In this document: positions 1,566 to 42,052 of the stretch, piece after piece | Position numbering within the stretch: position 1 is the stretch's first letter | How the letters are laid out: every line of letters starts with the position of its first letter | Assembly (NCBI GenBank): GCA_001724265.1 | Contig: MEDY01000049.1 | Span: 62,001 to 107,794 of the forward strand | Origin: Rhizaria sp. SCN 62-66 | Lineage: Eukaryota | Length of the DNA: 45,794 nucleotides | Reading direction: 5' to 3' | Notes under the pieces: model-generated | Told to the model about the DNA's origin: nothing | Database searches by the model: none | The model's input: the letters and a program-made list of their open reading frames with translations, nothing else | Translations under genes and position numbers: made by a program

Positions 1566-2213
1566 CGCCACTCTGGTTTAATAACATGTTTCAATTCACT
1601 TTATTTTTTACTGATACCTAGAGTATTGACTATATACACCGAATACTATGTTTGATTCAAACTTCGTTTCGCTTAGGTGCGGTACGCGGACGGTTTGCAC
1701 GATGGCAGAATGACTAACCGTATGTACACAATGTATTACAACTACTGATGCATGTTTTAGTTTTCAAGTTCCGTGCGCCTCGGCCGCCTTTTTATACTTT
1801 TTTAACGACTGGACGAACCATCCCGTCCCAAATCGCCTACAGTCCAGTTAATTACGGAACAAGATCACTTTTCCGATGCGAAATCAGTTGAATTAGTACG
1901 CACTACCTAGTTGATTATCTAGATAAGCTTTTATACACAGAAAATACATAGTATTTATTCTGAAATCAACTCAAATTAATTTCCACCACGAATGACTTTT
2001 GCTCGGTCAGCAGAGAAATAGCGCTTGTGGCCAGAACGAATGTCCAGACTAAACAGGTTGATAGTCGTCAAACGTGAATAATATTGCAGTCACCAATATG
2101 AACCAACTTAAACTTATATATATTATTTTATCATTTCTCTTAGATCACTTTGACAGACACTCTGCAGAGACGACGAATCTCCCAACCAAGTGCCACGTCC
2201 TCCCTCTTCGACG

Positions 2214-3338: not shown

Positions 3339-3781
3339 ACTCTAAACAGGGTTTAACTTGTGCCAAATTTGAAATTTTGAAGTTTGTCGCGTTTATATGA
3401 TGCGATACCTCGGGCCAGTTTAATTCGCATATTTGAATGCGACGTTTCTTCTTCCTTAGTCACTGTTTTTTTATTTGGGTTGAGAGATGCGACCAGATAT
3501 TCAATTGCGTAAATAAATTATTTGATTGTGAGAATCTTACAAACGTATTTTTTAACTGAAACGTGCATGTACAAAGTTTAATAATTGAGATATGAAAGAC
3601 GTCTGTATAAATATTGAAGCATAGCTGCAGACTAGTTAAAGATAGGGTTCACGAAATAGTCAATGTTAATCATCAATGTTAATCGTAATAATGAGAATAA
3701 GGAGAGGATAATTATTTTAATATCTTGCTAAATAACAGACTGGCTGTCAATGGTTGCAACAACAAAATGATACGAGTGAAA

Positions 3782-6700
3782 TTACCGCCAAGCATTCGGA
3801 CCCTCAGGCACCTGTTGAGTGTTTCCGTCGTTGTTGGCACCACTGCGACTGTTGTTGCTGTTGCTGCCGCTGGCATGCGCTGCGCCGCGCCTAATGAGCG
3901 CGGACTGTTCGCCCTGCTTAACGAGGTAGTCTTTGCGCCGCTGCGTGCACGCCCGCGCCAGCGCGCTGAAGGCCACATTGCCGCGCGCGGCCACCTCGAT
4001 CGCGCTGCGTTGCGCGCCGCTGGCGCCCACGGTGCGCGCCGCGGTGACGGGGTACGCGGGGCTGCCTACGCACGAGGCCACGACAGCGGCGGAGTGGTGC
4101 TGTGGCTTTGACAGTGGGGGGAATGGCAGCGCGGTGGCCGCGGCGGGGGCGTCTGAGAGGAATGCCAGTGAGGGCAGCAGAGACGGCGGGACAAGCGACA
4201 TCGACGACGGCGCATGGGTCATCCCAGCATGGTAAGGGCCTGGTACAGCAGCGGTAGTGTAATTGGGCAAGTCCGAGCCTGCCGTGCCGCGGGCCCGCAT
4301 CAGGCCTGCGAACACTTGCTCTGGGGGTTGAGTGTGCGCGGGCGAGGCAAAGTGACCGTGAGCGGCGAGGTTGTGACCGTGACCGTGGCCGCGACTGCGG
4401 GCAGAGACCGGCTGTCCTTGGCTTTGACTGAAGTGACTGTGTGCAGCTGATGTGAGAGACTCGTCAGCCTCGGGAAAGCTCTCGAGTGACTGGGAATGCA
4501 GCATCAACGACGGTGAGTGCTGCAGCAACGCTGCTTGCGACTGAGCCTGTGAGCCTCCAAACGACTGTGTCTGAGACACCGATTGCGACTGCGACTGAGA
4601 CCCGGTGGTGCTGAGCAGCTGCAGCTGCGAGAGCGACTGCGACAACGCCAGCACGTGCGAGTGCGACTGCTGCGACTGCAGCTGCGCGTGCGACGTCGCC
4701 GTCTGCAGTTGCCGCGACATCGCGCCCTCCGCGGTCGCCTCAGCGGCGGCCGCGGCCGCCGTGGCGGCGGCACGCGCGGCGGCCGCAGCGGCCACGGTTG
4801 CGGCCGTCACGCCGCCCGCGCTCGCCGCAGCGGCAGCGGCCGCGGCCGCCAGCGTCGCAGCCGTGACGGCCTCGCTGTTGCCGCTACGGCCCCCGTGGGC
4901 CTGCGCAGAGGCGTGGCTGCCTGCGGCGGTCGTGGTGCCGACGAGAAACGGCAGCGCGAGCGGGGACAGCAGCGGCAGCGCAGCCGCGCTGGGCGTCGCC
5001 GTGCCGCTCCGAGTGAGATGCGGGTACGCGTGCATCGTCGCTGGGGACACGTGAGCGGCACCGGTACAGGCCGCAGCGGCGGCGGCGGCGCGGCGCGTGC
5101 GGCGCGGCGACGAAAGCACAGCCGTGCTGGCAGACATGGGCAGGAGCGCGACGGGCGTCTCCACGCTGCCGCCGTGCGCGACGGTGAAGTTGTGCGTTCC
5201 ACTGGCGAGGGCAGAGGCGTTGTTGCTCGCGCCGTACACACTGTACTGGTTGAAAGCGTTCACGCCGCCGTTCCGCAGCGGCGACTGCATTCCCCCGCCG
5301 CCACCGTCCGCAGCCGCACTGTAAGCGCCGTGCCCGGCTGCGTGCGCGTGCGGACCGCGGGCGAGCGTGTACGGGGGAGCCTGCGTGAGCGACTGCGTGT
5401 GCGCGACGGCGCGGGCCCGCGTGCGCGAGCGCGGCGTCGCGGTCGGGCGCACCGAGCTCTGCAGCAGCGGCGACTGCGGCGCCGACGGATGGCCGGGCGG
5501 GGGAGCGTAGGGACTGTGCATGAAAGGACTGTGGGGACCGGTGAGGGGCGCGCCAGGGCCGCCCGTGCTGTTGAAGAAGACGGGGGACCCGGCGGTGTGA
5601 TGGGGCACAAGGCTGGAACTGCCGGGAATCAATGGCAGTCCTTGCGTCGGCGACTGCAGATATCCTTGCGGAGACTGAGCGTATAGAAACTGTTCGAGCT
5701 GTTGTTGCTGTTGTAGATGTTGTTGCATCTGTTGTTGTTGCTGCTGCATCTGCTGCTAATGTTGCATCTGCTGCTGTTGTTCCGGAGTGAGCGGCGTTGA
5801 CCGCGGGGACTGTGCAAACGGATCGCTGCCATCCAGGAACCCGCCGCTCGATGTAAGCATCATCACGGGGCCATACTCGTCTGCGCCACTGCCACTGTTT
5901 GTCCCGGGCCCGCTCTGGCCGCCCTGCTGCGTGTTGAGACCAAGCGCAGCAATACTGGGCGCCTTCGCGTTCTTCGCGGCGGCGGCGTCGACTGTAGGCA
6001 GTGGTAACATCGTCGCGTTGATTATCGCCACGCTTGTGTCCGCGCGCTTGCTACCGTCAACGCGAGTCGTGACCAAGTCGACGTGACTCGGCGCCAACGC
6101 GTTCGCATTGGCGCTGACAAGAGCCTGTATATCGACAAGAGCGGTGGGCTCAGAGCTGGCGCTCGCGGGCTGAATCGCCTCTAGATCCCGGTTGCGACTG
6201 GGCTTGCGGCTGTGGTGTCCCCCGCGACTGTGCCCGCGACTGTGCGCGCGGCTGTGTCCAACAGCGCTGACCTCACTGATGTTGCGGCTGTGCCGCCCCG
6301 TCGCTTTCCCGCCGTTGTCGACGTCGCGGCTGTGCGTGCGGCTGTGCAGCCCGTGGCCGTGGTGGCCGTGGGCCGCCGCCGGCGACGGACTGTGGGTCGC
6401 GGACCGCAGCAGCGCCACGTCGGGCGCCGGGGACGGCGACGACGCAGCGCCCGCAGCCGCGCCCGCGTCGAGACCGGGCGTGGGCGAGTGCGGCGTGCCG
6501 CCGTGCATCTGCGACGGGGCGCGGGACAGCGACCGGGACTGCGGCAACACGACGGCGCCCAGCCACCACTCTTCCTCTCTCGCGCCGTCGCCGGCCTCTG
6601 CAGCGGCGGCCGCCGCAGCGCTCACGGCCGCGACGTGATCGCTCTCGGTGCCGGGGGCAGGCGTGACGGACAGCATGACTCCGTGGTGCTGCACGGGATT

Positions 6701-8296: not shown

Positions 8297-11200
8297 ATGC
8301 CGCACCCAACATCGGTTGGCTCCGCGGAGTCCCCACCGTCGCAGACCGCTGCAACGCACTCATGTGCAGTATGCGGCGCCGCAATGCCCTTATCGGCAAA
8401 GCGCGCCGCACGTCAACGCTCTGTTTGCAAGCCATGCTTGCTGGTATGTCGTGTGCAACCCGTGTGCAACCCATCCAGCTCAAACATGTTATCGAGATTC
8501 CATTCGCCAATGCGGCATGTAGACTCACCATCCATGTGTTATGGTTTTTTCCCTTGGTATATAGGCTGAGATTGAGGCTGGTGATGGTTCTGGTACTGAT
8601 AACGAGCTACCTGTCTCGGACAACACAACCACGAGCGCATCCGCGACCTCATCTGCAAGCGAGTCTGTCACTGATCGCGCATTCGTCGCGACCGCAGTGA
8701 AGTCGTTTGCTCGTCAACTGCGCGAAATGAAGTCACTGGGCACACATACTCCACCCACTATGGCCTTGCGTGACTCAAATCCTGCTGTCATAAACGAGAA
8801 CGGCAGCGGCGGCTCCACAAGTAAGGCTGAGCGACGCGATGAAAACGTAGGCGCACTTGACAAGACGCTGACTAACATTAGGGTTATTTGTGTTTGAATT
8901 TCCAAAATATCTCGAACTACGTCTCATTAACATCATTTTTGTCACTGCTACTGTCTTGTATTTGCGTCTAGTACTGTTACGAGCACCAGACACCGATCCG
9001 CATTGTGAACTTTTGCGACACATGCGTCACCCCGGTCTGTCACCAGTGCGCACTATTGCACCCTACCCACAAGGCGCACCAGTTTCGCACGGTTGTTGAT
9101 GTCGAGCTAGAACTGCTGGAGAGGACGAAGACGCTCCATGCGCTCTACGCCGACTTCACATATCGTCAAGACGTACGCATTAATATGACTATAGGTTACC
9201 TTCAATCCGCTTTTAAAAGAATCCATGTTCAGAAATCCAGCTGTGAAGAACTCACATGTCAAATTGTGTGCATTTTTTGTTTCCAGTCGCAATCCATTGC
9301 GATGTCCAAGCTTGTTTCGGCCTCGTCGTCACTTCTTTCGCACACAAAAGACGCTTCTGCGACGTCGCTATCCGTGCGTTCGGCGCGCCCCGCCATCAGC
9401 GCGCACTCGAACATTGCTGCCTACAACGACCTAGCACACAAACACGAGGCCTCACTGCGCGCCTCTGCCCTCGCCACGCTGCAGTCGATCACCGCGGCGA
9501 CAGCGACCCCGGCTCTGGCCACGCTCGCGCCGCTGCTGCTGGACTGTGCGTGCTGGCCCACCCGCGTCGCGCCCTCGCTCGTCGTTGGCCCCGCGCGCTG
9601 GCAACGTGCGCGCGCCGCTCTCGCCGCAGCGGCTGCGGACGCCGCGCGCGCCACGGCACCACTCGCAGTCACCGTCGCCGCCGCGGTCCCGGCCACCGCA
9701 TTGGGCGTGATGGTCGATCGCAAGTCCACCACAGTAGTTGCAGGCGCAGCTGGGGCGGAAAATCGTGTTTTTATCGGACAGACAGCGTATCACGGTCTGG
9801 TGATCTCGTACTATGCTGTGCGCGTGTGTGGTGGCTGCGGCAACTGCGAGCACAGTAACACCGTTGCCCACAGGCAAAACCGCGCCGCCGTCGAGGGCAT
9901 TTCATCGTCTCTGTCGTGCCCCTCAAGCACTACGACTGATGCGAACTCCAATGGTACCAGCCGTGATGACGTATCAGCCGCGCCCGTCTGCAGCAACGGC
10001 TGCGCTATCGGCGTCGAGGCCGTGGTCTCCGTCCCTCGGCACGCGCCGCTCCTGCAGTCCAAGTACCGCACCCACCGCGAGCGCGGCCGCGAGATTGCAG
10101 CCCTCTTTTCTGACGAGATCAGGGTTCAGGCTGACGCAGCCGCAACGGCAGCAGCGGGTGCGGACGTGTCGCTGCCGTACCCCATGTTGCCTGCAGCCAC
10201 TCACAGTATTAGCTCGAGTCAGGTGACGAGCAGTGTGCTTGATCCTGTCGGCCCCAGCGCGGCTGAGAGCGGCAACGCGCCAACGGCAGTTGCTGTTGGC
10301 AAGGGCAAGACCAAGAACAAAGCTAAGAACGCGGGGACTGCCTCGGCGAGTTCCTCAACAGTCACGGGGGCGACTGTGTCAGACGTGGGCGCCGCGACTC
10401 CGTCAATGGTTGACATCGCCGTCTTCTCGGTTGACGCCACAGTCACCGTCGTCGCCGCGGCGGTTTCTCCCAGTGCGTTTACTCCCAGCTTCTTGTCGCC
10501 GGCGTGGTACGCGGAGAAACTCATCGCCGCCGCGCGCGCGCTGCCGCCCAATGAGGCGCTGTGCGTGCCGAGGTAGGTTGCCGTTAAGGCGGAGAATGGT
10601 GAAGAAAAGAAGAGCGAGGACAGTGTGAGTGCGCGTGCGACTGGTGCTAGTGACGCAAAGCCAGCTGAAGCTTCGGCGAGGTATATCCCGTCGAAGCTTA
10701 TCTGCCGCTATCCGACTCTGTTACCGAAGGCGGCTCGCGATGACATGGTACTAACGCCCGCGCCGTATACGAGTGAGGCGCTGAGTCGTGCGCTTGCTGA
10801 AGCCCACAGTTAGTCCCGAAATAACTCTGAGATTACGACGGCCGGTCTCGGCAGCGGTTTTGAAGATGTCATCTGGACGCTGCAGTCTTCGGCAGCTGAC
10901 GCATTGGCGTTGACGATCGCGACTCCGACAGACCCTGTTGTGGCAGCAGTCTCCAATGCGGACGCAGATGCTGATACGTCAGGATTGTCAGCCACGGACG
11001 CAGCTTCTGCTGCTCTCGGTAGCACCGCAACGCACATTGCGGACGCTGACTCCACCCATGTGTCGTCATCGCCAGCGCTGGCCTCAATCCCCGGAGTTGT
11101 GGACGTCATCATGCGCTCTCAGAGCGTGGTCACCGTGGGCGCAGCCGTCTCCACAGTGGGCCGCGGTGCAGTAGTGACTGTGAGCAGCGTCGCCGCAGCG

Positions 11201-13558
11201 TGCACTGAAGTGCTTGAGCGGAACGCGGCCGAAACCCTAGCAGCTAGGGCAGCTGCGAAGGCCGCCGCGAAGGCTGCGAATGCTCTCGCCAGGACGAAGG
11301 CGCGGGCAGAAAGGGTAACTGCGAAGGCAGGTGGAATGCGGGGCTTGCGACGAAGCGCGCGCGCTCGGGCTGCTGGCTATGGCGACGAGAAGAAGACGAA
11401 GGATGGGCGTGTGCTTCTGTTCTCAGTTGACTTTGGGCCTGCAGACGAGGATGACAGCGACGATGCGGACTATGTGGCAAGCGACGACTGCTACAGCAAC
11501 GAAGACGACGAAAATGAGGATTGTGAGAAGGATTCTGGTTCTGACGACTGCGACAGTGGCAGTGGCAGCGGAAGCTTTGCTACAGACTCTGAGTGCAGTG
11601 GATTTAGCGACGGATTCACCGACCCAGATGAGCATTACGCGGACCACGATAGTTAGCTTATCAAATAGCTGCTAGACAGCCACCCGAGTCATAAGATGAC
11701 TATGCGGGGACACAACAGCAATGCGGCTCGACAAAAGTTCGACAAGTGCCTCAGCAGTCTTATGTATGATGCTGTGGATAAGTACTACTGCTATGACATC
11801 AAGAAAGATTACAAATATGGCATGAAGGTGAGGCTTGCTGAAGCGAATGCAAAGGCTGAGGCGGAAGCCGCTGCGAAAGACAAGGCTGATGCAGAGGCCA
11901 AAGCAAAGGCGGAGGCAGAAGCCGAGGCAAACGCGATGGCTAATGCGGAAGCCGCTGTAAACGCGCCGGCTAAGGCTCGAGCTGGTTTAGACACAGACAA
12001 GACAGATTCAGGCACAGACAAGGTAGACTCAGACACTCAAGCTTCTGATGAGGAACACGAGGTCATCCCTAGATCTGCTGCTACCGAGAAGGTGTGCGCT
12101 GTTGAGGATGCAAATTTGGAAATTTATGTCAACTCAAAGGCTGATGCGAAGATCTCCACTGACAGTAGTGTTAATCCAGTCCCACCCAAGTCTGATCCGG
12201 AGTCAGAACCGACGTCTGACTCTGTTTTTGAGTCTGATCTCGAGTTAGAGTCAGAGTCCGACTCGGAAACAAATGCTTTAATCGAGCATAAGACCGAGTT
12301 TTATCTCCACTTCTCACTTACCGCGCGTGTTGGTGACGTATTTCAGCAGACCCGTCTGCTGCGGCTGCTGAGCGAGGCACATGACGAACTTGAACTCGAA
12401 CTTACAAACGAGACATTCTCGTTTGAAACCAAGCTTCTGAACTCGAGTGTTCCGCCATTACTTCTCTCACTCAACGTGAACAATCTTGAGAGTCACAAAG
12501 GCATTGCCATCAGCAACAAACTGACTGCAGCCGACGCTATCACTTCCCTCTCCGCGGCATCCGCGACCGACCTCTACACCCACGCGCGCGCACTACTTGC
12601 GCGGCAGGTTCCGCGTATTTTGCCTCCGTACGCTGCCCCGCCGAACGCGAGCTTGCTGTACAAGTGGCGTATGCCAGGCGACGCCCGCTACAACGGGCAG
12701 CGGCTGCGCATCATGATCGACGATGATGAGTTTCCGTGTCACGCCGCCAGTCTGCGCATGTTGGCGTACAAGGGTCGCCATGCCGCGTTGAACGTGCACA
12801 CGTGCTACAAGATGCTGACGGCTGACTGCGTTGCTCGGAATCAGGCTAACAGCGCTGCCGAGGTCGAAAAAAGCGATAGGTTGTCATTTGCTCAGTTTCT
12901 CGCAGTTGGCTTTGATCAATGTTGCAACAGTCTCGGTCTTAGTACTGTCAAGCGCATCACGGACGACAGTGAGAGCGAAAGCAAGAGCAAGACCGAGAGC
13001 TTTTGTCTCAACCCTGCGGCTCTCTGTGACCGGTTCTACAACGAGTGCACAACGCCTGCCACGAAGACATACCCCGCTGGCACAGTGTTTGCGCTATCCA
13101 TGTCCGCGTCACCGGCTACAGTGAATCATGCGATGTTTCTTATTGCGATCGCGCCCATCGCAGCCAAAGACGCGCCTGGCGCTGTGCCTGTGGGCTCCGT
13201 CGTGTCAGAGACGGGAGGCCCCGCAGTGGCACCGCCGGTGCTGCCGTCGGGGGAGAAAACAACGAAAACATCGATAGTGTCGACGATTGCGTCTGGGGAA
13301 AAGAATGCATCGGATGGTGATTCTGCGAGGACGACTCCAGTTGATGTTGAAGGTGGACTGGAGGCGGAGCTCATGCAGATCTGGTACTGGGCGCGGGCGC
13401 ACTTGAGCAAGAGCAACCGCTATCTCGAGAGCAGGAACAAGATCTTTGGGAGTGAAGGCTATGCTGACGGATGTGGAAGTAAAAATGACAATAATCGCGA
13501 ATGCAAGGCCCAGCTTGAGTTTGTTGGCTTTTATGACGGTGAGCAAATGGGCGAGTGA
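8297..13558 (+). CDS. CxxC-CxxC / B-box zinc-finger protein, paralog A (about 1633 aa), four in-frame TAG codons
   Basis: Exons 8297-8443, 8565-8846, 8972-9172, 9287-13558; all introns phase 0 GT-AG. Exon 1 encodes CAVC...CKPC; exon 3 encodes the B-box YCYEH...FCDTCVTPVCHQCALLHPTHKAH. ORFs 9005, 10625, 10904 and 11696 share one frame, broken only by TAG at 10574, 10811, 11654 and 11666. Ends in TGA. Confidence 0.75.
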
Positions 13559-27709: not shown

Positions 27710-28537
27710 GTGACTTGTGGGCGCGGGGGTGTCCCGATACGAGCAGGGCGGACGACTGTTGCGGGCGATAAACGCGTGCTCCGTGAATAAACTCTCTTGA
27801 AACTAAGCCGAAGAATAGTACGATATATGTTAGTGAAGAACTGGTGTTGAAGGCATCTGAAGAGAGCGCGGGCAGCAGTTCGGAGTAGAGATTCGTTGTT
27901 GCGTCGGTGCTCCTCTGGTGGCAACGCGCCAGCAGGATTATTCATCATATTAACGTCTGTGAACCCACATAGAATTAACACATATTATACACAACTATGC
28001 GTGCTTTACGCACTATTAAAATAATTCGAGATACTCAGACGTTTCCACGCACAGTTCAATTCAGCAGAGGCTTGCTCGATTCGACCGCAACGGAGCACCT
28101 GCTGACCGGCGGATCTTCGGAGTAATCATGTTTAGTCAACAATTTGAGCTCTACGTCTTGACAACGAGCACTTGTGCATAAGCTATGCAACATATGATAT
28201 TTCAAAACGTGATGTATTGAATACAACTCGAATTTTCACTCTTAGCACTTATATATTTTCATTGTTCACGTCTTTCGTGTTTGCGTCACATCGTCACAGT
28301 TACTCATCCGGACAACCTTTAATGCACACACCACACAAACACATTTTCTGTACATCTATATTTTCACGGTTAATACTTACATCAACACAAATGGCGTGTA
28401 AAGTGCATCAAACTCGCGCCCATGTGCGAATATTGCACTCTGACATCCATTCCAAAAAGTTTGCACACTTTAAGTTCCCAAAAGACCAGCGGGTACGGTC
28501 GCTAACTGCTTTCGCTGCAAGCGCTTACTTGCATGAC

Positions 28538-29514
28538 TTACTTGCCGCCGCAGCAGTCGCCGCACTTCTCGAGTTTGCTCATGTCGGTGCCCGAGGGCGC
28601 CTGGCCGAAGAAGCGCAATGAGTTGACCTTGGTTTTGTCGGTCCCGTTCTGGTTGCTGGCCACGAACACGGTCACATTGAGCGTGTTGGCGAAGGGAAGC
28701 GGCTTGAGCTCGATCGCCTTACCGGCAAGGTGCTCGGGGGTCAGCTCGAACACTTGCGCTATGAGAGACAACACGTAAATCACAACAAAGCAAAACAATA
28801 CAAGACAAGTAACAGTGTGAGGTTGAGTGTCGATCGATACGCAATGAAGCGGTTTGGCATAGCAACGACGTGATTATGACACATAGGTGTATATTTAGTC
28901 ATTTTACGCTGTTTCGCTGTAGAATATCGAATATGTGGACGTACCGGGCTTGATGGTGTCGACGTCGTCGAACGACATGTTGGGCTGGTTAACGTAGACA
29001 CGCACCTCCTTGGGCCCGCTGGCCTCGGCAGAGGGCTCCAGAGAGACGATGCGGAGGCCGCGGAGACGCACGTGAGAGGTGAAGGGAACCGTGAGCAGAA
29101 GCTGCTCGTCGGAGTCGGACTCGAGGGCGGCTGTGCGGGGGCGCAAGGGGGCGAAGCAAAGGCGATTGCAGCAGAGCAGGAGGATTCGTTAGGTATAAGA
29201 AGGCGTATAGAGGAAAGTCGAGGTATCGCAGCTAAATTGAGGTGAGATAGCACACGACTCGGCAAACCTAGAAATACACAGGTAGTATATAAGATGACAC
29301 AGCAAACTCGCTCTGTGGTGTCACTGTGGCGAGATATGGTCCATCTTGACGCGAATGATGAAGCTTGCGAGTCGTTTGTGGCTGACGTACCAATGCCGTT
29401 GCCGGTGAGGATGCTGTTGACATCGGCGTCGGCAGGGATGTTGAGGGCGTGGGCCTTGTTGGGGGTGATCTTGTCCTCAAGATCGACCACGTTCGTGGCG
29501 CTCAGCGCGGACAT
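28538..29514 (-). CDS. PITH-domain (proteasome-interacting thioredoxin-like) protein, 176 aa
   Basis: Exons 29514-29391, 29130-28945, 28758-28538 (both donors GTACGT). Motifs LESDSDEQLLLTVPF, GPKEVRVYVNQPNMSFDD, IELKPLPFANTLNVTVFVASNQ..TKVNSLRFFG. Ends in TAA. Confidence 0.9.
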
Positions 29515-29877
29515 GCGGGACGAAACGGGGGTCTGTGGCACGGAGTGGGAGCAGGGGCAACGTTCGAGAACGGGGATGATAAGCGGAATTGTCATTGAGC
29601 GACACAGAAACTGAATTTAGATGCATAATTAATAGACATTACAATTAACCATAGTTTATATATCGGTGCAATACCTGACGCCGATTTGTCGATGGAAATG
29701 CGTTCAACTTTGTCAGATATCATCTGCTCAACAATCGGGTCAGCCACGCAGAGCACCCCATGCCTCTTTTCAATCTCCCGCCACAGCGTCACACATCAGA
29801 CTTTCAACGCATATCTTCGCTCAAACTTTGATAACACATGCTTTCAACTTAATTTGCGTTCCTTTCGCACCCCAGAT

Positions 29878-31610
29878 ATGCTTGCCACGCGGTCATTCGC
29901 GCGGACTTTTAAGGCCGTCGTGCCCCGCTCGAGCGCCGCCGCCGCTGCGCTCTTCTCTTCCGCGGCCTCCGCGGGCGGCAAGGGCGACTACAAGGTCACC
30001 CAGATCGTCTACTCCAAGAACGGTCCCCCCGCAGAGACCCTCGAGTACGTGCACTCACAAGCACTTGCATCACGGTCGCGATATCGCACCAACACTCCAA
30101 CTCGTCAACTCACGTGATCTTTCCATCTTTTTCTTCTCGCTTTCCGCCGTCCCTTTCCCACTCCGCCCCGCAGACTCGCTACCGCGACCGTCTCGAGCCC
30201 CGGCGCGTCCCTGGCACCGCGGTCTGTGTTTGTGCGCCAGATCTGCGCGCCTATGAACCCCGCCGACTTTAACCTCGTGGAGGGCACCTACGGCGTCAAG
30301 GCCCCGCTGCCCGCGATCGGCGGTAACGAGGGCCTGTTTGTCGTCGAGGCCGCGGGCGCCGAGTCCTCGCTCGCACCCGGCGACTGGGTTATCCCCACGG
30401 TGCCTAACCTCGGCACGTGGCGCTCGCACGCTGTGCTGGAGGATTTCGCGCTGTGCAAGATGCCCCAGACTGTGTCCGCCGAGGCCATCGCCACGCTCTC
30501 CGTCAACCCCTGCACTGGTACGCTCAAATCACTTGATAACAACTGTATACTTGTCGAGATATTAATTTGATTGATGCTATACCGTACACTTCAATTGATA
30601 TGAGTTCATCTAAGGTCCTTACTGTTCTTATTCTTTTCATGCTGCGCATTTGCAACCAACCCACTCGATTCATATTTTTTTTTCTCATTTATTTGTCTCT
30701 TCTATTTTGGTTTTTGTTATTTTCATCATTTAGCGTACCGCATGCTGTGCGACTTCGTTTCCCTGAAGCCCGGCGACGTGGTGCTCCAAAACGGCGCCAC
30801 CTCTGGGGTTGGCAAGGCCGTGATCCAGATCGCCAAGGCCCTGGGCGTCAAGACCATCAACATCGTCCGCGACCGGCCCGACGTCGCGCAGACGCGGCTC
30901 GACCTCATGTGCCTGGGCGCCGACGTCGTGGTGACCGAGTCCGCGCTGCGCAACAAGGAAGAGATGAAGGGCGCGCTCGCCGCCGCCGGCATCGACAAGA
31001 AGCCGCGCCTCGCGCTCAACTGCGTTGGCGGGCCCCTGGTCGGCGATATGGTGCGCCACCTCGACGCCAAGGCCACCGTGGTCACCTACGGCGGCATGAG
31101 CAAGAAGCCCATCACGCTCGGCACTGGTACGTTTCATAATAATGTTTTATTTCGATGATATATACGAACTCAATTCACGTGATATATGTGTGTTTGCTAT
31201 GGAGTTGATTTGTTCTTTTAGATTCTCATTATTTCACAATCTTTCATTGAGATATATGATTCGTTTCGTAATCGTTATGTGACAGGCATTTGAACGCAAC
31301 ATAAATCTCTGACATTGCTTTTATGATGACTCGCTTCTTCATTTCGTCTTTTTCAGGTCCGTTCATCTTCAGCGACCTCTCGCTGCGCGGCTTCTGGATG
31401 ACCCAGTGGAACGCGGAGCACGCGCCGTCCGACCCCAAGCGCATGTCGATGCTGTCTGCGCTCATCCAGCTTATCGAGAAGGGCCAGCTCAAGACCGACA
31501 CTGTGACCGTCGAGGTCGCCTCGCAGGCCGACGTTGTTAAGGCCGTCGAGATGGCCGGTGCGAGCCACAAGACCTCGAAGGTCCTCATCAAGTTCCCCAA
31601 GCAGGCGTAA
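29878..31610 (+). CDS. MECR: Mitochondrial trans-2-enoyl-ACP/CoA reductase (MDR family), 385 aa
   Basis: Exons 29878-30044, 30174-30517, 30734-31126, 31357-31610. Motifs APMNPADFNLVEGTYG, GGNEG, GTWRSH, ATLSVNPCTAYRML, QNGATSGVG, LALNCVGG, VTYGGMSK, FIFSDLSLRGFW. Presequence MLATRSFARTFK. Ends in TAA. Confidence 0.95.
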
Positions 31611-32015
31611 AATGCTTAGCGCAACGACTCGTTGGGACGGGGAGTAACAACTAACTTACACAGCACAGTTTTACAGTGCATGTCAAGAATCGATGGCTGG
31701 GGGTTTTTCTTGCATGGAAAACATTTAATTGGTTAAATATTACGCTTATATACTCGAAGGCAAATAAAATACTTCTCATTTAAGATAAATTATCGGCGTT
31801 GATATGCCCATGCGAACGTGTTTGGTTGTGTTGAGATTGTTTGTGTATTCTTTTGTGTTCAATCTTTGATTGTGTCAGCCACAATTGCGTGGACATTTGT
31901 GCAAATATAAAGCTAAGTAAGATATAAACGTGGTATCAAAGTCACATTTTGACTGGAACCACTTTTAGGATATTGATGTAAGAGACCACGTCGCTCAGAC
32001 CCTTGGACAGCGTCT

Positions 32016-33455
32016 TTAGAAGAGGCCCTCACCAGCGGGCGCGATGAGCAGGTCCAGCACAGGTAGGCCGTTGGGCACTGCACAGAGCTTCGCCAACAGG
32101 CTACACAAAACAGAAGCAGCAAAACAAGATACAAAAGCATAAAGGACAGACATAACATAGTGAGCGCTATAGTCAATGACTAGAATGAACATAATCAAGA
32201 ATTGACATAATCACCAAATTGTGCAGAATATGTGTAATATGTCCACAAAGAACGTACCCTGTGAGCTGGAGCAGCGAGTCGCAGCCGTCGGCGACGCGCA
32301 TGTGCGTCATACCGATCTCCTTGATGAAGCCGAGCTTCTGCGCGTCTGGCAGTGGCGCGGCCTTGCAGACCTGGAACAGCGACGAGGCGAGATCCACGGC
32401 CGCGTAGCCCTGCACCCAGAGCGTCTCCAGGGACGTGATCGCGGAGTGGAGCTTGCCGGACGCGCAGTCGGACAGAATCGACTGTGGAGAAGCAAAAACA
32501 AAGGGAAGAAAAGAACAGATTCACAAATTAGTTGTTAAAACCACAATAAACATAAAACACTCTAAAATTGAAGAGGCCCTCTAAAGAAACATTGTTTACG
32601 TCGAAACATAAAGCTATTATTCATGAGGCCATGTTATCGTTGAGATATAAGGTCGTGAGTAGTCCGTACTTGGATGACGAGAGGGTGGGGCTGGTCGACG
32701 ACCTTAAGCACGTTCTCTGCCGTCACGGCGCCCGTGCCCGCAAGCGTGGCCTGTAGGTTATTAAGCGCCTGGCGCATGTCGCCCTGCGCAGTGTACACAA
32801 TCGTCTCGAGCCCTGCGTCGTCGTACGCGGAGACGTTCTCGTGGTCGAGCACTTCTTTGACGCGGCGCACGATGTGAGCGTCGCCGAGACGCGTGTAGCG
32901 CACGATCGCACAACGTGACTGGATCGGCTCGATGATCTTGGAGCTGACGTTGCACGCAAGCGCAAAGCGCGTGGTCTTGGAGTAGATCTCCATGGTGCGA
33001 CGCAGCGCCTGTTGCGCGCCTTTTGTCATCGAGTCCGCCTCGTCGAGAATGATGATCTTGTGGCGCGAGGGCGGGAGGTTGACCTTCTTCTGCGCGAAGG
33101 CTTTGATGCGGTTGCGCACGACGTCAATGCCGCGCGAGTCGGAGGCGTTGAGCTCCAGCACGGCCTCTTTGCACTCGCTGCCGAGCAGCTCGCGCGCGAG
33201 ACAGAGGATCGAGGTAGTCTTGCCAGTGCCGGGCGGGCCGGAGAGAATGAGGTTCGGCAGGTTGCCTTGTTTAGCGATGATGCGAAGGCGCGAGACGGCC
33301 TCCTCGTTGCCCACGACGTCGTTAAGCAAGCGGGGGCGGTACTTTTCAACCCAAGGGAGCGAGGAAGTCTGATCTGTCGTCACCGCGGAGGCGGAGGCAG
33401 AGGAGGCGGAGGCCGTGGACGAGAGGACAGCGTCCTCGTCGGTCATCGCGGACAT
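32016..33455 (-). CDS. RFC2: Replication factor C small subunit (human RFC2 / yeast Rfc4), 364 aa
   Basis: Exons 33455-32670, 32481-32258, 32100-32016. Motifs PWVEKYRP, Walker [42 protein letters not shown], and C-terminal [27 protein letters not shown]. Ends in TAA. Confidence 0.97.
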
Positions 33456-33772
33456 ACCGGCTGCTATTGAAGAAGGGCCGTAAAACAATTTTGTTGGAAG
33501 GGAGAATATTATGAAACAAAATCTGGGTGTAGAGATCAGACGTGTTTACGGAACTTCGAGGTCATAATATTGTGAACAAGATTGGCGTCGACAAGGCGCC
33601 AACTCGCGAAGCCAGACTCGCCCGCCACCACATCTTCTCAGTAACATCGTCAAGTCAGTCGCATATACTGCATTTAGATGTGAGGCGTGGAGTTTGAGGT
33701 TTATCTCACGATTAAATATTGTCTAACAAATTATTTTCTTCTTGAATGCAATCTTAGGACCACGACAACCTG
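33456..33772. promoter_or_regulatory. Probable bidirectional promoter between RFC2 and XPA
   Basis: 317-bp gap between divergent start codons; inferred from gene geometry only. Confidence 0.45.
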
Positions 33773-35711
33773 ATGTCTGGGCTCGGGTCCTCATGCGACT
33801 ACGATGACCGCGACGACTGCGTGCCCGACGACGACCTGGACGCGTCCTACTTCGAACAGAGCGCCACAGACTTTGCCGCCGAGGAAGCCGCATGGAACGC
33901 CGCAAACACGTTCACCACAACACCCAATAACAGTCACCCTAGCGCAGTCGCAGTCATGAATCTCTCTTCCGCCGTGAGCAGCAACACCTCTACTCATAGC
34001 AACAGTCTCTCAACTACCGCTGTCGCGCCGTCCCTGGCATCCGCACTCGCCGCGACTATTGCGCACGCGTCTTTGTGGCGTTGCGTTGTCTGCGGCTGCG
34101 GGTTAGCGCATCCCAACGACGCTGCCGCGCGCAAAGCCGTCGCCGCCGCGTCGAGCGGCAACGCTTCCCTCAACGTCTTCCTCCCGACCTTCTACCGCGC
34201 GTTCCGCGTCTGCCTCTGCTTCGCCTGCTCGTCCCGCGCCTTTGACACCGCCGCGGCGGCCGCACAGGCTCTGTTGGTGCTGCCGCCGCCGACCCCCGCG
34301 GCTGCGGCGCGCGCAATCGCAGACTCGCACGCATTCGCCGCCGCCGCGGCTCGCTCCGAGCTGCTCAGCACCACCGCGCCCGCGGCGCCCGCCGCGCCCG
34401 GGTGGAGCGGGAGCCACAACGCGGGCGGCACGGCCGTGAGCATGGGCGCCCGCGGCTCGGCCTCGGCGCCGCTGCCCGCGCCGCTGCCGCCGGTGCCGCC
34501 GCCGCCGCCTCCCGCTGCGCTCGCAGCCGCGGTCGCGGTCGCTGCAAACAGCAGCAAGACAACAACTGCCCTGAGTAGCGCGTCAAGCGATGACGGCGCT
34601 GTTGTTGTAGCGGGCGTCGTGGTGCCCGCGCTAGTTCCGCTGCCGTATATCACCGACGACGAGGCCTTCCACGTCGCGCCGTGGGCATTGTCGGCGCGCT
34701 CCACGCTCAAAAACACATTTTTGCTCACCGACGACGATTTCTTTGGTCTCGCGTTCATCTCTAAGCCGAACCCGACGCACCCAACGTGGGCGCCGATGCG
34801 GCTTTACTTGACGGCACAGGCGGCGCTGCTGGCGCTACGTCGGCACGGCAGCGCGGCGGGCATGCGCGCAGAGGCGCAGAAGCGGGCGCTGGCGCGGCTG
34901 CAGCGGCGCACGGATGCCGCGATGGCCGCCGCCGACGCCGAGGCTGACACCGACGATGGCGGCGATGACGCCGCCGCGGCTGCTGCTGATGATGGCGGTG
35001 CGAGTGGTGTGGGGGGAAAGGCAGCTGATGGCGGCGGGCTGGGGCAGTTCATTAAGAAGAAACAAAAGGCTGCTGCGAAGGCTGAGGCCAAGGCAGCTGC
35101 TAAAGGCGTCACCAAGACTGTTGAAAAAACTGATGTGGAGACTGGAGATGCTTATCATGATAGTGAAGGTTCTGGCGACACGGATGTCGGCTTTGTTGCG
35201 AAACGTAGCCGCAAGACCACAGACAGTCAGTCAACAACAGTGAGCCTTCGAGATGACGACGGCGATGACGACGTTGTTGCTGTCGATGAGGATGCTGATG
35301 CGACTGACAGCAAGGGCAAGATCAAAGGTAAAGCTGTCAAGGGCAAATGCAAAGGCAATGCGACTGCTGCTGCGGAGATTAAACCGAAGACGAGGGTCAC
35401 GAAAGCAAAGGGAGGGAAAGGTACAGACTCCGCTGCTGCGAAAGCTGGAGCTCAGCAGTCCGCATCCGCGGCCGCATTTGCGCAGTGCGTGGCGCAAGGC
35501 CACCAGTACGAGGCTGTTGCTGGTAAATCTGGTACGTCAAGACTACCACGCTCACTATTCTTTATACGATGACGTTAATATCACATTTAATATATCATTA
35601 AATAACCTCTTATTATTCTTTGACTCATTAAACCGTATTCATTTATCATATTTTGTAGTTGAGCGCTGTGTGCGCTGCGGTGCAGAGAGTGAATTTGAAG
35701 AGTTCTTTTAA
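33773..35711 (+). CDS. XPA: XPA/Rad14 nucleotide-excision-repair protein, 603 aa
   Basis: Exons 33773-35531 and 35659-35711. Zn-finger CVVC...FRVCLCFAC; XPA core LKNTFLLTDDDFFGLAFISKPNPTHPTWAPMRLYL...ALRRHGS; C-terminal HQY...RCVRCGAESEFEEFF. Ends in TAA. Confidence 0.88.
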
Positions 35712-36406
35712 TGCATCATAGGAGATGCTTCTTGATGCGCCAAACATTGTTCTTTTTCAATTCAAAGCTTGACGACGTAATGGTCAGGTTACATGTTTCA
35801 ATGCGTCGACAATCAACATCCGAGTTTATTTATTTAGAAATGTGATTTATAAAGCGAAACATATCAGTACATACACGTGAGCACATCATGCAGTTTTGTC
35901 ATTCGTCAACAGTTACCTGACATGTCGAATCGTTGCTATCCATCTGTCGCGTCGCAACCTGTGTTCATCATCATCACGACTCCAAGCTATGATGAATTTC
36001 CGAGCTGAGCGCTGGAAAAGGCATGTGTTCAGATGCAGCGTGTTATGGCTCACGGAGCTAAGCAGCGGCGTTAATTTCAATAAGATTGTTAATAACGGAC
36101 TCAGCCGCCAGAGTTGTTTGATTTGCTGAGCTGAGGCCGTGGATGATATTGTGCGTTGGCGCATCACAAGTCAGCCAACGCTCCCTCAGTTGAGCAGTTC
36201 CATTGAGAATTACCACAACTACCTCACAATTCTTCTTCTTTCTAGCATCAAGTTGGCGCAACTTTACGTGAACTTTTTTGTGGCCTGTACTTTCCAAGAT
36301 GGGGAGATTAGAATTTAAGGAGATATATGAAGTTTACATGTACGGATACCAATGAATATGCTCAATTATGCTCTATATCGAAGACTGTATTGAGGGGAAA
36401 TACAAA

Positions 36407-39103
36407 TTAAGTTTGTACTTTCCAAGAGGTGGTGCTGAGCAACTCTTGCATTACATTGTCAAACAACGTCAATTTTTTTGTCTCGTTGTTATGCAGCTTC
36501 GGCCAGTTTGCTCTTAGTGAAGAATCGGCCTCCTCGAGCTTGACCTGGTTTATGGCCGCCTTTGTCGCCTTGACGTCGGCCGCGGGGACAACGCGGGCGG
36601 ACACGGGACTGGCCTTGCCAGCGGCCGCGGGCTTGATGCTGTGGATGGCAGAGATGAGCGCGGCGGGCAAAACTTTAGGCTTGCCAGCAGCGGCACCAGT
36701 GGCGGCGGCTTGCTCCGCCTTCTTCGCGGCTTCTTTAAAGGCAGCAAGCTCGGTCTTGAGAGACTCCTCGGTTTTCAGGGAGTGGGACGCGGTGGCCGCA
36801 GCAGCAGCATTAGCGACGTTGTCGGGCGTATGTTTCACAGCATGCTCGACGGGCTCAGCGGCAGCAAGGACAGACATATCGAACGAGGCGATCGCAGATA
36901 AAAGATCAGCAGGCTGACTGGCGAGGGTGGCCACTCTAAGCGCCATAGCATCGGTGTACAACTGCTGAGCACGCGCTTGCTGCATAACGTCGGGGAACGA
37001 CACTACACATTGCACACGAATTCGTGACTTCACCTAACTAATATTGTTGGCAATCTGTTTTGAATCATGTGCAAACAGTACCTAACTGACATTATCAGAA
37101 AGAACGAGTGAAACAACAGCAATGCGTGACTTCTCCTTTCCAACGCTGGCAGCAATCATCACGTCTGACCGATTATTTTCTTTGCTCTCCTCGTAAAGCC
37201 ACACCTCGCATGAAGCAGTCGTCTTACAAGATTTGTTACTGCTTGTATCGAGCGCAGAGATAACGGTAACTTCTGCGGTTACGCGGCCAAAAGTATTTGC
37301 AACAGTTGCAAACGGTGTTGCCACATGTTTTGCAGTCTTCATGAGATCCATTTTAAATGTGGAATGCGATTCGACTGGAGGACGGCAAGTTTTGCTATCA
37401 TTGTCGCTACGGCCACTGCCAATTTGATCCTGATCTTTCATAACAAAATCGTCACCGGCAACATCATCGCAGAAATGATCTTCTGTAAACACAAGATCAT
37501 CAACAGCACGTGCACGTGAGCCACATGCCTCATACAACGCAGCAAGCATTTTGCACGACGGCTCCGCCGTAACTTCGCACACGATCCCACATAAGCACAG
37601 GTTCTGCCTGTCGACACCTTCAATTCCGTTACCGTTTTTTGCAACACGGACAATATTTGCTTTCGCGCAACTGCAACCGCGGCCCAGGCGAAAACGGAAA
37701 CGCACACCGCAAAGCTCAGCTGTGCCAAGCTCCACCGGCTTGGCACCGAGCGCAAGCTCTGAGATTGGAATATCTGCTTCACAAACGGCTTTGCGCGGGG
37801 TTAAACCCGTAGCAGCGTCAGCCAGTGCGGCCTCAAATGCCTCGCGCGCGGCTGCGTGCTTTGTACTCCCAACCTCAAGTGGTGGGTCAACGCGTGCAGG
37901 CCAACCTGTGCTTGCAGTGACGAGCGCAGCCATCTCCGTGATATCGGGTGCGACGACCGACTTTGTGAAGCTCTCCAGGTTGTCGCGAGCCACGACAAGC
38001 TTTTTATCTTCAGCGATAATCGATTGTGCGGTATAGAGTTTGAGCTGGGACAACACTGCCGCAAGGGGCGCGGCAGCCTGAACAGCAAGCATCTTGCTTT
38101 GATCGAGCAACGCTGTGTGCTTACTGTTGACCATATCCCTGAACTCCGCCATTGCAGCTGCTTGTTCCTGAGGTGAGAATCGAAGAAGAAACAACACATT
38201 TTACGTTACGTACATGAAAAAAAATTAGAAATGTGAGCGGGTATTATTACGGAGATTGCAATTTCCGATTGCAATTCCTCACTTTGTGACACAAGCAAAA
38301 GCTTCCAGCTCTCTGTTACGAACCTAAACTTTGCACTCAAAGCTGCCAAGCTGTAATGGCAGTTGCTCCGCGCAAATTTTAAGCTGTGTACGCACATCGC
38401 TAATCATGCGGATATTGTGACCCACATGAGTGCGGCTCCTCACATCGCACTGGAGGCACACCGTGGAGTTGCAATTGTCGCACCAGTTGATGATCTCGAT
38501 GGGCTGCCCGTGCAAGTGGCAGTACTAAAGCAGTAGCAACAGCAATAATAAGAAATACAAACAATGTTAGGCTGTTGCACCATGTTTTTGATATTAAATC
38601 ATGCGAAATCGACGACGCATAGTTGAGTGTAACGAATGAGTGAATCTGATGGAGTTGTACAGGAGCGATAATAAAAGTGAGAGCCGAATCGAAATGTGGT
38701 GGAGTGACCAAGCGTACGTTTGGGGCATCAGCAGGAATGCTTGATTGTTTGTTGTCTGCAGCAACGTTGTCGTTAGAGGACTTGTGGCCGCGAATCCCCG
38801 TGTTAGTCGGGACTCCAGGGAGGTCATGCTTTGCAATCTCAGCCTAATGAAAAGAGTTAGAAAGTGAACAAAAATATTGATAGCCATAGTTGCGTTCAAC
38901 TAAATCTGCAGAATCATAATGGCTGACTTCGCCTCATGTATCGCTTACGACAGACTTTACGATAGCAAATAGAGAACACAAGAAATACAAGGACTTGGAA
39001 TCTGTAGACTTACCTGTATGCAGTTCTTACAAAGGCGAGATGGTCGGCCTCCGGGTGGAAGACTCAGAGTTCGGCCACATATAAGGCAGCTAGAAACACT
39101 CAT
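36407..39103 (-). CDS. CxxC-CxxC / B-box zinc-finger protein, paralog B (about 725 aa), three in-frame TAG codons
   Basis: Exons 39103-39014 (MSVSSCLICG...LCKNCIQ), 38843-38718, 38524-38324 (B-box YCHLH...WCDNCNSTVCLQCDVRSRTHVGH), 38167-36407. Same exon layout as paralog A. TAG at 38326-38324, 37084-37082 and 37036-37034. Ends in TAA. Confidence 0.75.
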
Positions 39104-39920
39104 GGAAGTGAAAACTCAGAAAACGCCGGGAAAGTGCTGTGGTGAACGATCCGACGATGTGCGAATTCTGTGAGTTTGGAGCAACGCACATAAAGATCAT
39201 GACGGTTTGAAAAGAATGTAGATAAACATATACAGCAGTGGATGACTATATGATATCAAGTTCAGTGATGATACGATAATTGTCGCGTCATTATGATATC
39301 GAAAACAGTCACCCTTCGTCCGTGATGGTCGTTTGGTCACCGGTCACAGTTGAGACCGAGAGACTGTGCCTTCAAGTGACGAGTGGACCTGATATGAGCA
39401 GCAAAAGAACGAGCTGGGTCTAAGGGTCAGGTGAGGTCGACTTGCGTTAACCGATCCTGCATCTTATTGTGCATTGTTTTTTTTTTGGTTTTTTTTTGGA
39501 TTTGTGTTCTAACTGTCACCTTCGTGACCAAATGGTGATTCGCTGTTTGTAATACACATCTCTTAGCGTACTCACATCTGGTTCACTCGAGATGCTCGCA
39601 TCATACAGTACATGAAGTAGCTAATCATATAGCAAATTTATTTGGTAGTGAAATGTAAACATTAATAATTATGCACACGTATCACCGCGTTATGGGGTTT
39701 CCGTGACAGCAGCCACGTAAAAATTGCTGTTACACTCGTCATGTTCGAGGGTTGACAGCGATGAAGTTATGACTGTGGTTCTTTGGTGTAACCTTTTATT
39801 TTCAACGCTACGCTCAACAACGCTTCAAGTTCGTAGCATAACACTAAGACTTAGAAGTGGCGATCCAAGATCGTCGAGTGCAATCTTGGCATTGTGTAGA
39901 GTTACTAAGACCTTAGATCC

Positions 39921-41085
39921 TTAGATCTTCTTGCTCTTGACCGAGGCGCCACCGGCAGCCGCAGCGGGGGAAGCAGAGGACGCGAAGGCGGCCGGCACGG
40001 GCTGCTTGGTAGCGTTGCTGTCAGAGCCGTTGGCCAGGGACGACAGAATGCGAGGAACCTCCTAAACAACAATGCCAGAAACATAAGAGTAGCAAAACAT
40101 ATGTAAGTTAGTCCTGTTAAAAGAAATAGAAGAAACATCCAAAAATAGGTCGGTTTTTACGATTTATACAGTCACCGAACGTTTTAACACAATAAAAGTT
40201 CGTCGACGACGCATGTTAACAATTAGAATGCGTAAGTACCTGGCTCCACATCTTGAAGTCACCCATGAGCGAGTACACGGGGTAGATGAACGTCGCAGGG
40301 CGGTTCTTCTGGTACACAAAGTGGCCAACCCACGCGAACGCGTAGCCGATCACCAGGGCCATCTGTGTGCCGTGTGAAGTAAGCGAAAGCAAATACAAAG
40401 AAAAACACAAGATATGAGTACAGGGAACAGATAACAAGTTAGTTCCACGAGTGAATACATCAGAAGAAGCGCGCAAAACAAAGCAGGAGGACGAATCAAG
40501 TTAACTTAAACAAGGAAATGCGCGATATTCGTCGTAAATACACGTTTGCGCGAGATATGCGTTGATTTGTCGACGTACGAGGCCAAGGCTGAACTGCTCG
40601 TTGAAGTGGGCAAAGGCGAGAAAGTACACGAGCATGGTGGCAAACTCAACAAAGCCGTGCGAAAGGCCCGCGAGGATGTTGCAGAGGATGTAGCCGATGG
40701 CGCCGCCACCAATGAGGCCAGCAGCAAGGATGGGGTTGCAGAGCATGATGACGATGATGATGGAGGTGCCCACCACGTGCAGGCGCCGGTTCGTGAAGTC
40801 CGAGTGCTCCGAGAGGTAAAACGGGAAGAAACCCTCGAAGCTATCATACGGCTGCAATAAAAACAAAGTACAATACCAAGGAAATTTGAATCAAGTTAGC
40901 TTTATCGACATTTCAGGGCTGGAACGACTAGGAGAGTAGATTGAGAGAGCACGACGTAGTGGAAGATTTGCGCGTGCTAGACGGACCTTCTTTTCGGAGC
41001 GGGGACCGGTGTAGGACTTGTTCAAAGGCTCAATGCGAGCAGCGGCCAGGCCCACAAGGGCAGCAGTGAAGAGATATGGGTACAT
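39921..41085 (-). CDS. DUF962 / Mpo1-like membrane protein, 211 aa
   Basis: Exons 41085-40987, 40851-40579, 40362-40240, 40061-39921. Motifs SFEGFFPFYLSEHS..NRRLHVVGT and GYAFAWVGHFVYQKNRPATFIYPVYSLMGDF. Signal-peptide-like N-terminus; C-terminal KSKKI. Ends in TAA. Confidence 0.88.
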
Positions 41086-41260
41086 TTCTCAAGTTCACGG
41101 AGACACCAGGGACTAAAAAGATCTAGAAACAATCACGCCGTTCCGCGGAGCTGGACGACGGCTTCGTCCAGATTTTTGCGAACCAGACTGACAAGAGTGT
41201 GTGGTCAACTTTTGTTCAATACACCCTGATGTGAACTCATCGTCAAAACGATAACAACTA
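41086..41260. promoter_or_regulatory. Probable bidirectional promoter between the DUF962 gene and CENP-X
   Basis: 175-bp gap between divergent ATGs; contains the inverted repeat CTGGACGA-cggct-TCGTCCAG (41151-41171). Confidence 0.45.
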
Positions 41261-41658
41261 ATGGAGGACGAGCAAGAACAGTTTGATTGCTATTCCTTTC
41301 GAGATGTACGTCTTAACCTAGCAATGCTACGCCACAATCGGACTTCCCATTTTGCCTTCCAAGACCTCACTTCGACTCTCATCGCATTATCTTGCCATTT
41401 GCTCTGAACTGGCCCACCTAAACTCAGGAAGTCATCCACCAAATTATATCATCGGCGCATGACGGTACTCCACCACCGTTCCGCCCCGACGCGGTGGCTG
41501 CACTGAGCGAGCTACTACGCGTCGCGACGCTCACTGCAGTTGCCCGCGCTCGTGCTCGTGCTGCTGCCGCTGGCAACACTGACGGCAACGACGATGTCAC
41601 GCTTGACGCTAAGGACATTGAGGCGGTCGCACTGCAGCTTATGTCTGATTTTACATGA
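41261..41658 (+). CDS. CENPX: CENP-X / MHF2 (STRA13) histone-fold protein, 91 aa
   Basis: Not in the ORF track. Exons 41261-41305 and 41428-41658 (GTACGT...CAG) give MEDEQEQFDCYSFRDEVIHQII...PDAVAALSELLRVATLTAVARA...LDAKDIEAVALQLMSDFT. This matches the CENP-X pattern FRxE.....DAL.L..ELL..F..EA..R and the C-terminal LEKVLPQLLLDF. Ends in TGA. Confidence 0.82.
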
Positions 41659-42052
41659 TCTATGCGCGCCCCGCGCTGAATGCGATGTTTCACTCATCCT
41701 AGCCACGATACGTGAGCTCTACTCCTTTGTACCTGCAACATTAGTTATACGAGTCCGACAGTGCGATGTCACAACGTTTATATAGTATTTTGTCAGTATT
41801 ACCTAGAATACAGATTGATATATTAAGCTATTAATGGTGTATTAACACATAATATGTGACGATTAGACACAGGGCATCCCTGCTCGAAATTTGGTACTGT
41901 CATGAACCCAAAGGAAAACATAGAAAGGAAATACATAACATAGAACCGAATAGATTGAAGATAAAAATAAGTAATTCACAAAAAAAGATCCATTAGTAGT
42001 CATACGAAGATCTTCACTGCAATCGAAACAAACGCTTTTCTTTAAGGCCTGC

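Follow-up and report, generated by a model that had tools for sequence, protein, structure and literature searches.

Only a handful of lineages are known to have nuclear genetic codes that give UAG and UAA different meanings (PMC5304391, PMC11687900). According to these accounts, UAG alone is reassigned to leucine in the rhizarian exLh (Sainouroidea) and to glutamine in Iotanema spirale (Fornicata) (PMC5304391); it is also reassigned to glutamine in the ciliates Protocruzia tuzeti, Hartmannula sinica, and Trochilia petrani, to leucine in an uncultured phyllopharyngean clade, and to serine in Scotinosphaera (PMC11687900). Here, we analyzed 45,794 nucleotides of DNA deposited as Rhizaria sp. SCN 62-66 (GenBank assembly GCA_001724265.1, contig MEDY01000049.1, positions 62,001 to 107,794), referred to as the window, whose own numbering and strands (+ and -) are used throughout. 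A stop-like TAG inside a zinc-finger gene of the window, designated paralog B, is most likely translated, making its host a probable further case among the known UAG-only reassignments.

The window organism resembles the described UAG = Gln cases (Iotanema, Protocruzia, Hartmannula, and Trochilia) in having in-frame UAG codons, in keeping UAA as a terminator, in using UAG rarely, and in glutamine being the best fit for the residue; UGA is also kept as a terminator. It would share with exLh and the phyllopharyngean clade the reassignment of UAG alone and the use of UAA as the main stop. Unlike ciliate macronuclear DNA, the window organism has long multi-gene contigs, exons whose GC content reaches 75%, and spliceosomal introns whose donor is GTACGT. 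If a eukaryote with introns and GC-rich DNA proves to be a further UAG-only case, it would shed independent light on how UAG becomes uncoupled from UAA.

Paralog B is best explained as a four-exon gene for a B-box/coiled-coil protein. Exon 1 (39014..39103, -) contains the ATG and a CxxC-x16-CxxC pattern and ends at a GTAAGT donor, exon 2 (38718..38843, -) encodes AEIAKH...APN, and exon 3 (38324..38524, -) encodes the B-box zinc finger. The predicted intron 3 (38168..38323, -; GTTCGT...CACCTCAG) is 156 nt, a length within the range of the RNA-verified introns described below. Exon 4 (36410..38167, -), with 586 codons and 41–49% identity to relatives, leads to a TAA stop (36407-36409, -). The in-frame TAG (38324..38326, -) is codon 139 of this model. 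A second gene on the opposite strand, paralog A, consists of exon 1 (8297-8443, +), exon 2 (8565-8846, +), a B-box exon 3 (8972..9172, +) ending in CAA GAC|GTACGC, and an exon 4 (9287..13555, +) in which four in-frame TAGs precede a cyclophilin-like C-terminal domain; its stop is TGA (13556-13558, +). Three intron positions are common to the two genes, every one of them between codons.

An earlier note, made from the DNA letters, had pointed to exon 3 as an internal control for the meaning of TAG, and its description of the two B-box exons holds. Each is exactly 201 nt (67 codons), and they align without gaps (YCHLHGQPIEIINWCDNC...SFECKV* in paralog B and YCYEHQTPIRIVNFCDTC...DFTYRQD in paralog A). 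Codon 67 of exon 3 in paralog B is the TAG, followed by GTTCGT, and the homology continues into the next exons, with EQAAAM (B, 38167) facing SQSIAM (A, 9287) and with WPARVDPPLEVG and WPTRVAPSLVVG both present. In the ungapped alignment of exon 3, 23 of 67 residues and 99 of 201 nucleotides are identical. The Pfam zf-B_box model (PF00643; gathering cut-off 24.1 bits) scores the exon of paralog B above its cut-off (26.6 bits, E 6.7e-6) and that of paralog A slightly below it (23.4 bits, E 6.9e-5); the relative P0136 scores 24.2 bits. In a tblastn comparison, A matched B once, colinearly over 325 columns, with 24% identity and an E value of 1e-10; the paralogy is thus real but old. Exon 3 is a useful internal control: the reading frame is set by the exon length, by where the intron falls, and by the spacing seen in relatives that lack it, with no assumption about the code.

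Four public runs matched the window: X1 and X2, which are cDNA libraries from a single wastewater sample, X3, a biofilm metatranscriptome, and X4, which is unspliced and is probably the source DNA. Contigs of these runs were compared over positions 28000-42000. Nine GT..AG stretches in genes neighbouring paralog B are skipped by contigs of X1–X3 and by none of X4; therefore, spliced RNA of the window organism is present in X1–X3. The nine verified introns are 129–260 nt long, and their donors are GTACGT (five), GTCCGT, GTACGG, GTACGC, and GTACTT, so the local GTNCGT consensus proposed in the earlier note is matched in full by six of the nine and as GTNCG by eight. A position weight matrix (PWM) trained on these nine donors gave TAG|GTTCGT, the donor directly 3' of the TAG in paralog B (38318..38323, -), a score of +5.9 bits, within the leave-one-out range of the verified sites (5.0–11.4 bits). 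Moreover, five relatives (P0008, P0136, P0137, P0142, and P0143) are intron-less here, a single open reading frame (ORF) running without a break from the B-box into the coiled coil. With the TAG codon kept, paralog B aligns with these five and with paralog A without a gap. This evidence is indirect and supports retention of the TAG in the mRNA of paralog B.

Exon 4 of paralog B contains two further in-frame TAGs, at codon 501 (37082..37084, -) and codon 517 (37034..37036, -). An X1 contig (36867-37165) spans both and is colinear with the DNA with 0 differences; therefore, these TAGs were not spliced out of that molecule. The 48 bases from the end of the first of them through the second (37034-37081, -) look like a mini-intron (start GTACTG, end TTAG), which, because the contig is colinear, was likewise retained there. 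All three TAGs of paralog B are followed, in frame, by the conserved motif SRIRVQCVVSFPDVMQQARAQQLYTDAMA (36941..37027, -); it is identical to P0002 at 19 of 29 positions (E 8e-9) and also occurs in 15 other family members. The TAGs of paralog A (10574, 10811, 11654, and 11666) all lie upstream of the conserved C-terminal domain, which aligns with P0008 (E 1e-6). Homology therefore continues past in-frame TAGs in paralog B (three TAGs) and in paralog A (four), and ORFs of relatives also carry TAG. The donor scores, the spacing in relatives, the two exon-4 TAGs, and the downstream motif together argue for the claim of the earlier note that the spliced mRNA would retain the UAG and that it must be decoded.

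One more in-frame TAG (5756..5758, -) is found in an unrelated polyglutamine gene (7882-3785, minus strand), where it lies inside a CAG/CAA run (QQQQMQH@QQMQQQQQQ) between one ORF of 708 codons and another of 657. This gene of 1366 codons is of low complexity and rich in Gln, Ser, and Ala, and the TAG is its only in-frame stop. A search for homologues of 751-2391 amino acids gave none, so ORF length is the sole argument for the continuity of its two halves. Across paralogs A and B and the polyglutamine gene, all eight in-frame stops are TAG, with 0 TAA, 0 TGA, and 0 frame changes over 3509 codons; under a model of random nonsense changes, eight TAGs out of eight have P of about 0.01.

At the unambiguous gene ends of the window, a small sample of 14 of which three are RNA-verified, TAA is used eight times, TGA six times, and TAG not at all. 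An ankyrin-repeat ORF (2154-3362, +), in which a TAG (3258-3260) is followed by 34 further codons and a TGA, was left out of this count as ambiguous; its TAG could be a decoded one or the window's only TAG terminator. The base after the nine in-frame TAGs listed here is G in four cases, C in three, and T and A in one each. A T precedes seven of the nine and the serine codon AGT four, in a sample too small for interpretation. A test based on the lengths of flanking ORFs did not separate TAG from TGA in the GC-rich DNA of the window.

Searching with exon 4 of paralog B, in which 8000 candidates were scored, gave eight proteins at E <= 0.001, seven of them relatives and the eighth the window's own fragment, and a profile search gave 101 family members (cluster representatives), of which 92 reached E <= 1e-10. 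When metagenomes were scanned with the C-terminal domain, 28 loci were found (L001–L028; 81.5 kb), every one from a single metagenome and referred to here as those of the relative. The N-terminal family alignment found no relative in either a metagenome scan or a scan of prokaryote genomes. In-frame TAGs recur in the family ORFs of the relative, with three in 641 codons of L001 and three coding ones in 800 codons of L010. Family ORFs contained 45 TAG sites, and for 20 of these one or more homologues reached 50% identity in the flanks. Five sites were dropped and two alignable window sites were added, leaving 17, for which mean BLOSUM62 scores were summed. The dropped sites were X3 of L010 and X8 of L007, where the TAGs are intron acceptors before the B-box; X96 of L020, which adjoins an indel and which HMMER places in a 77% Leu column; and X174 of L023 and X123 of L003, where homology ends at the TAG.

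Over the 17 sites, Gln ranked first of the 20 amino acids (+16.2 half-bits), against +7.6 for Glu, +5.7 for Ser, and +5.3 for Lys; Leu ranked 14th (-26.3), the lowest of the plausible candidates. At seven sites checked by codon in close paralogs, the codon opposite the TAG is CAG at four and TTG, TCG, and GAT at one each; among the 17 sites, Gln forms the majority opposite the TAG at four. The preference for Gln over Leu expressed in the earlier note therefore stands on this ranking and on the CAG codons, while its original argument, the alignment of the exon-3 TAG with a single Asp of paralog A, is too thin alone. Further family members were aligned at this column as the note had proposed, and with paralog A they show K, E, K, E, A, and D, which marks the position as polar and nothing more (column scores: Glu 2.2, Lys 1.7, Gln 0.8). 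The UAG residue is probably Gln, on weaker evidence than that for decoding, and other polar residues are possible. Unlike in the described UAG = Gln cases, the residue here comes from 17 weakly conserved sites rather than from hundreds of conserved positions. The pattern of residues and codons opposite TAG is what would be expected of a recently gained Gln codon in rapidly evolving genes.

Taken together, we consider it likely that intron 3 of paralog B is spliced at GTTCGT immediately after the TAG and that the UAG, staying in the mRNA as codon 139, is read as an amino acid. UAG would then no longer be a terminator in the window organism, with UAA and UGA still serving as such, and the ribosome would insert an amino acid at UAG, most likely glutamine. 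Such a reading would require a tRNA with the anticodon CUA, for which a mutated tRNA-Gln(CUG) would be the usual route. We give roughly even odds to a wider proposal, namely that an undescribed non-ciliate eukaryotic lineage, found so far in wastewater-type metagenomes only, has reassigned UAG alone to Gln, and that the codon is young and spreading in a TRIMCyp-like gene family. In that proposal, TAG would be absent from conserved GC-rich genes and accumulate in the fast-evolving, much-expanded family of B-box/coiled-coil/cyclophilin-like proteins. If true, the spread of a reassigned codon would be observable in progress. TAG is rare and, among the sampled genes, limited to weakly constrained, low-GC ones. 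By gene, GC content across the window ranges from 45% to 75%, and in-frame TAGs are confined to the lower-GC genes, the polyglutamine gene excepted.

A number of observations count against translation of UAG as Gln. The 38324/38167 junction is covered by no RNA contig (X1–X3 are empty over 38274-39207), and we infer the use of its donor from the scores and spacing given above. Both contigs on paralog B are single-exon, so that they could be of DNA origin, and X1 and X2 carry the tool label 'RNA? (probably DNA)', though spliced forms are present in them. Searches of the window with ARAGORN and Rfam gave neither a tRNA gene, whatever its anticodon, nor another RNA family, and ARAGORN gave no tRNA gene in the 28 loci of the relative. 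By codon usage, TAG would already account for 54–58% of random nonsense mutations. The TAGs of the window all lie within poorly conserved stretches, conserved genes have no in-frame TAG either in the window or in the 28 loci, and the family includes pseudogene-like members (L024, with a TGA and a frame change, and L021, with a TGA). The scored sites are themselves poorly conserved, and 15 of the 17 come from the relative rather than the window organism. The residues opposite TAG are mixed: Leu (TTG) faces X288 of L001 in five homologs, X310 of L010 faces Leu in three of five and Gln in two, and K, D, S, and A are found at other sites. The single best homologue shows Gln at only 1 of 14 sites; this tally was not used as a likelihood, its background being inflated by identical ORF copies in the protein set.

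UAG could instead be a sense codon for something other than Gln, either a polar residue (Glu, Ser, or Lys) or Leu as in exLh and some phyllopharyngean ciliates, which we regard as unlikely. Beyond the Leu residues at L001 and L010, such a meaning would fit the exon-3 column, in which Glu and Lys outscore Gln, as well as the column of the third TAG of paralog B, where Asn and Ser dominate among relatives (N5, S5, G2, H, P, D). Both UAG = Leu and UAG = Ser are also known elsewhere, as described in PMC5304391 and PMC11687900. Over the full set of 17 sites, however, the margin of Gln is 8.6 half-bits over Glu and 42.5 over Leu, columns that are mostly Leu occur at only 2 of the 17, CAG stands opposite TAG at four of the seven sites checked, and one TAG of the window lies inside a polyglutamine run. 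Unlike what would be expected of an exLh- or phyllopharyngean-type Leu code, the TAG sites are mostly in polar columns.

Were paralogs A and B and the polyglutamine gene instead decaying pseudogenes or nonsense alleles, TAG would be an ordinary stop. This is an improbable account, and several of the observations above are compatible with it: the large family evolves fast and some of its members are broken (L024 and L021), and TAG is the most readily expected nonsense change at the rate given. In addition, when the best homolog is taken at each site, one residue in two opposite TAG is a one-step neighbour of it (K, L, Q, E, and W), as new mutations would be. Decay does not account for the eight TAGs among eight in-frame stops and the intact frame over 3509 codons, nor for the conserved motifs that stay in frame downstream of the TAGs. 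The TAGs are present in several assemblies and in a contig of an independent sample, TAG ends none of the 14 genes counted in the window, and the relative also has long intact ORFs interrupted by TAG only.

A standard code with leaky or programmed read-through, in which near-cognate tRNAs would translate these UAGs and UAG would terminate other genes, is very improbable. As in programmed read-through in standard-code eukaryotes, UAG would be translated and near-cognate insertion of Gln is possible; the heterogeneous residues opposite TAG, the restriction of rare TAGs to a few low-GC genes, and the ankyrin-repeat ORF that reaches a TAG 34 codons before its TGA would all be in keeping with it. 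In contrast to programmed read-through, single genes here contain multiple UAGs, which lie well away from the 3' end, and the gene ends of the window use none. Seven such events in two genes, two of them (11654 and 11666) four codons apart, would leave almost no full-length protein, and the sequence after the TAGs varies, with no common read-through context.

Finally, the earlier note had named as one possible refutation a splice at GTTTAG, an in-frame donor that begins six bases before GTTCGT (38324..38329, -); such splicing would remove the 38326 TAG and make the exon uninformative on decoding. It has in its favour a GT at 38329, a kept frame, and the uncovered junction, and is very improbable. 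AAA|GTTTAG scores -4.9 bits (10.8 bits below TAG|GTTCGT), shares only GT with GTACGT, has A rather than G at -1, leaves paralog B two residues shorter than all six compared relatives (a 2-residue gap in the alignment), and leaves the two exon-4 TAGs unexplained.

The family to which the paralogs belong has an architecture like that of TRIM/RBCC proteins, and TRIMCyp in particular, combining a B-box, a long helical region, and, in most members, a predicted cyclophilin-like C-terminal domain in a large, fast-evolving family with at least 28 loci in the one metagenome; presumably it parallels TRIM5-CypA. The C-terminal domain (window 12600-13350, +; L001–L028) is absent from paralog B. Its structural model (pLDDT 86) has a cyclophilin-like fold, and the Foldseek matches are nearly all cyclophilins (E 1e-4 to 2e-3, TMt 0.43-0.55, 10–17% identity), the TRIMCyp structure 4dgd among them. 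Unlike TRIMCyp, the family gave no Pfam match to the cyclophilin-type PPIase model (Pro_isomerase, PF00160) at E up to 1 in seven members, and paralog B has no C-terminal domain at all. No RING match turned up in the searches made, in which exon 1 (CxxC-x16-CxxC) was not scanned alone. The TRIMCyp-like architecture of the family likely arose independently.

Among the 28 loci of the relative, in-frame TGA codons are found in L021 and L024 only. L024, which also changes frame, looks like a pseudogene, and the single TAA in L013 coincides with GTAAGC, a possible intron start. The stretches concerned (L021:2080-2670, L024:767-1200, and L013:1-1150) are either pseudogene-like copies or unrecognised introns. 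Conserved genes outside the family that are free of TAG in these loci encode a 1411-aa P-type ATPase, a histidine ammonia-lyase fragment, TRP, SPA/Afi1, and GNAT.

Standard gene callers truncate genes of this type at each TAG, and the proteomes of the window organism and its relatives would therefore be systematically truncated. In public protein sets, paralogs A and B are represented by fragments only, which end at TAGs (P0001, P0141, P0202, and P0140). Strain variants among the cluster members of these fragments were considered and rejected, as the members are alternative start calls only. Two unrelated ORF fragments, P0194 and P0216, end right before the Q in the motif CFVPxGQS, a residue shared by 14 of 41 rows. 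Their own stop codons are not visible, and their ends offer a hint that TAG = Gln may apply elsewhere in the clade.

The window is eukaryotic nuclear DNA with GC-rich exons and short, AT-richer introns. Its genes encode PDZ and ankyrin proteins, a class II aminoacyl-tRNA synthetase, Ada3, a zinc alcohol dehydrogenase, RFC2/4, XPA, and an Mpo1-like protein; eRF1 is not encoded there. The best explanation for the host is an intron-bearing eukaryote from wastewater-type samples, and a literature search found no published description matching an organism of this type. RFC2/4 is 59–74% identical to proteins of named species and up to 84% identical to metagenome relatives. Because the matches to named species are scattered over fungi, animals, green algae, and plants, they do not place the lineage. 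In the alcohol dehydrogenase gene (30884-32104), X4 contains a diverged second copy, with one contig showing 29 differing letters and a 6-base insertion; this copy may be a second haplotype or derive from a close relative within the same sample.

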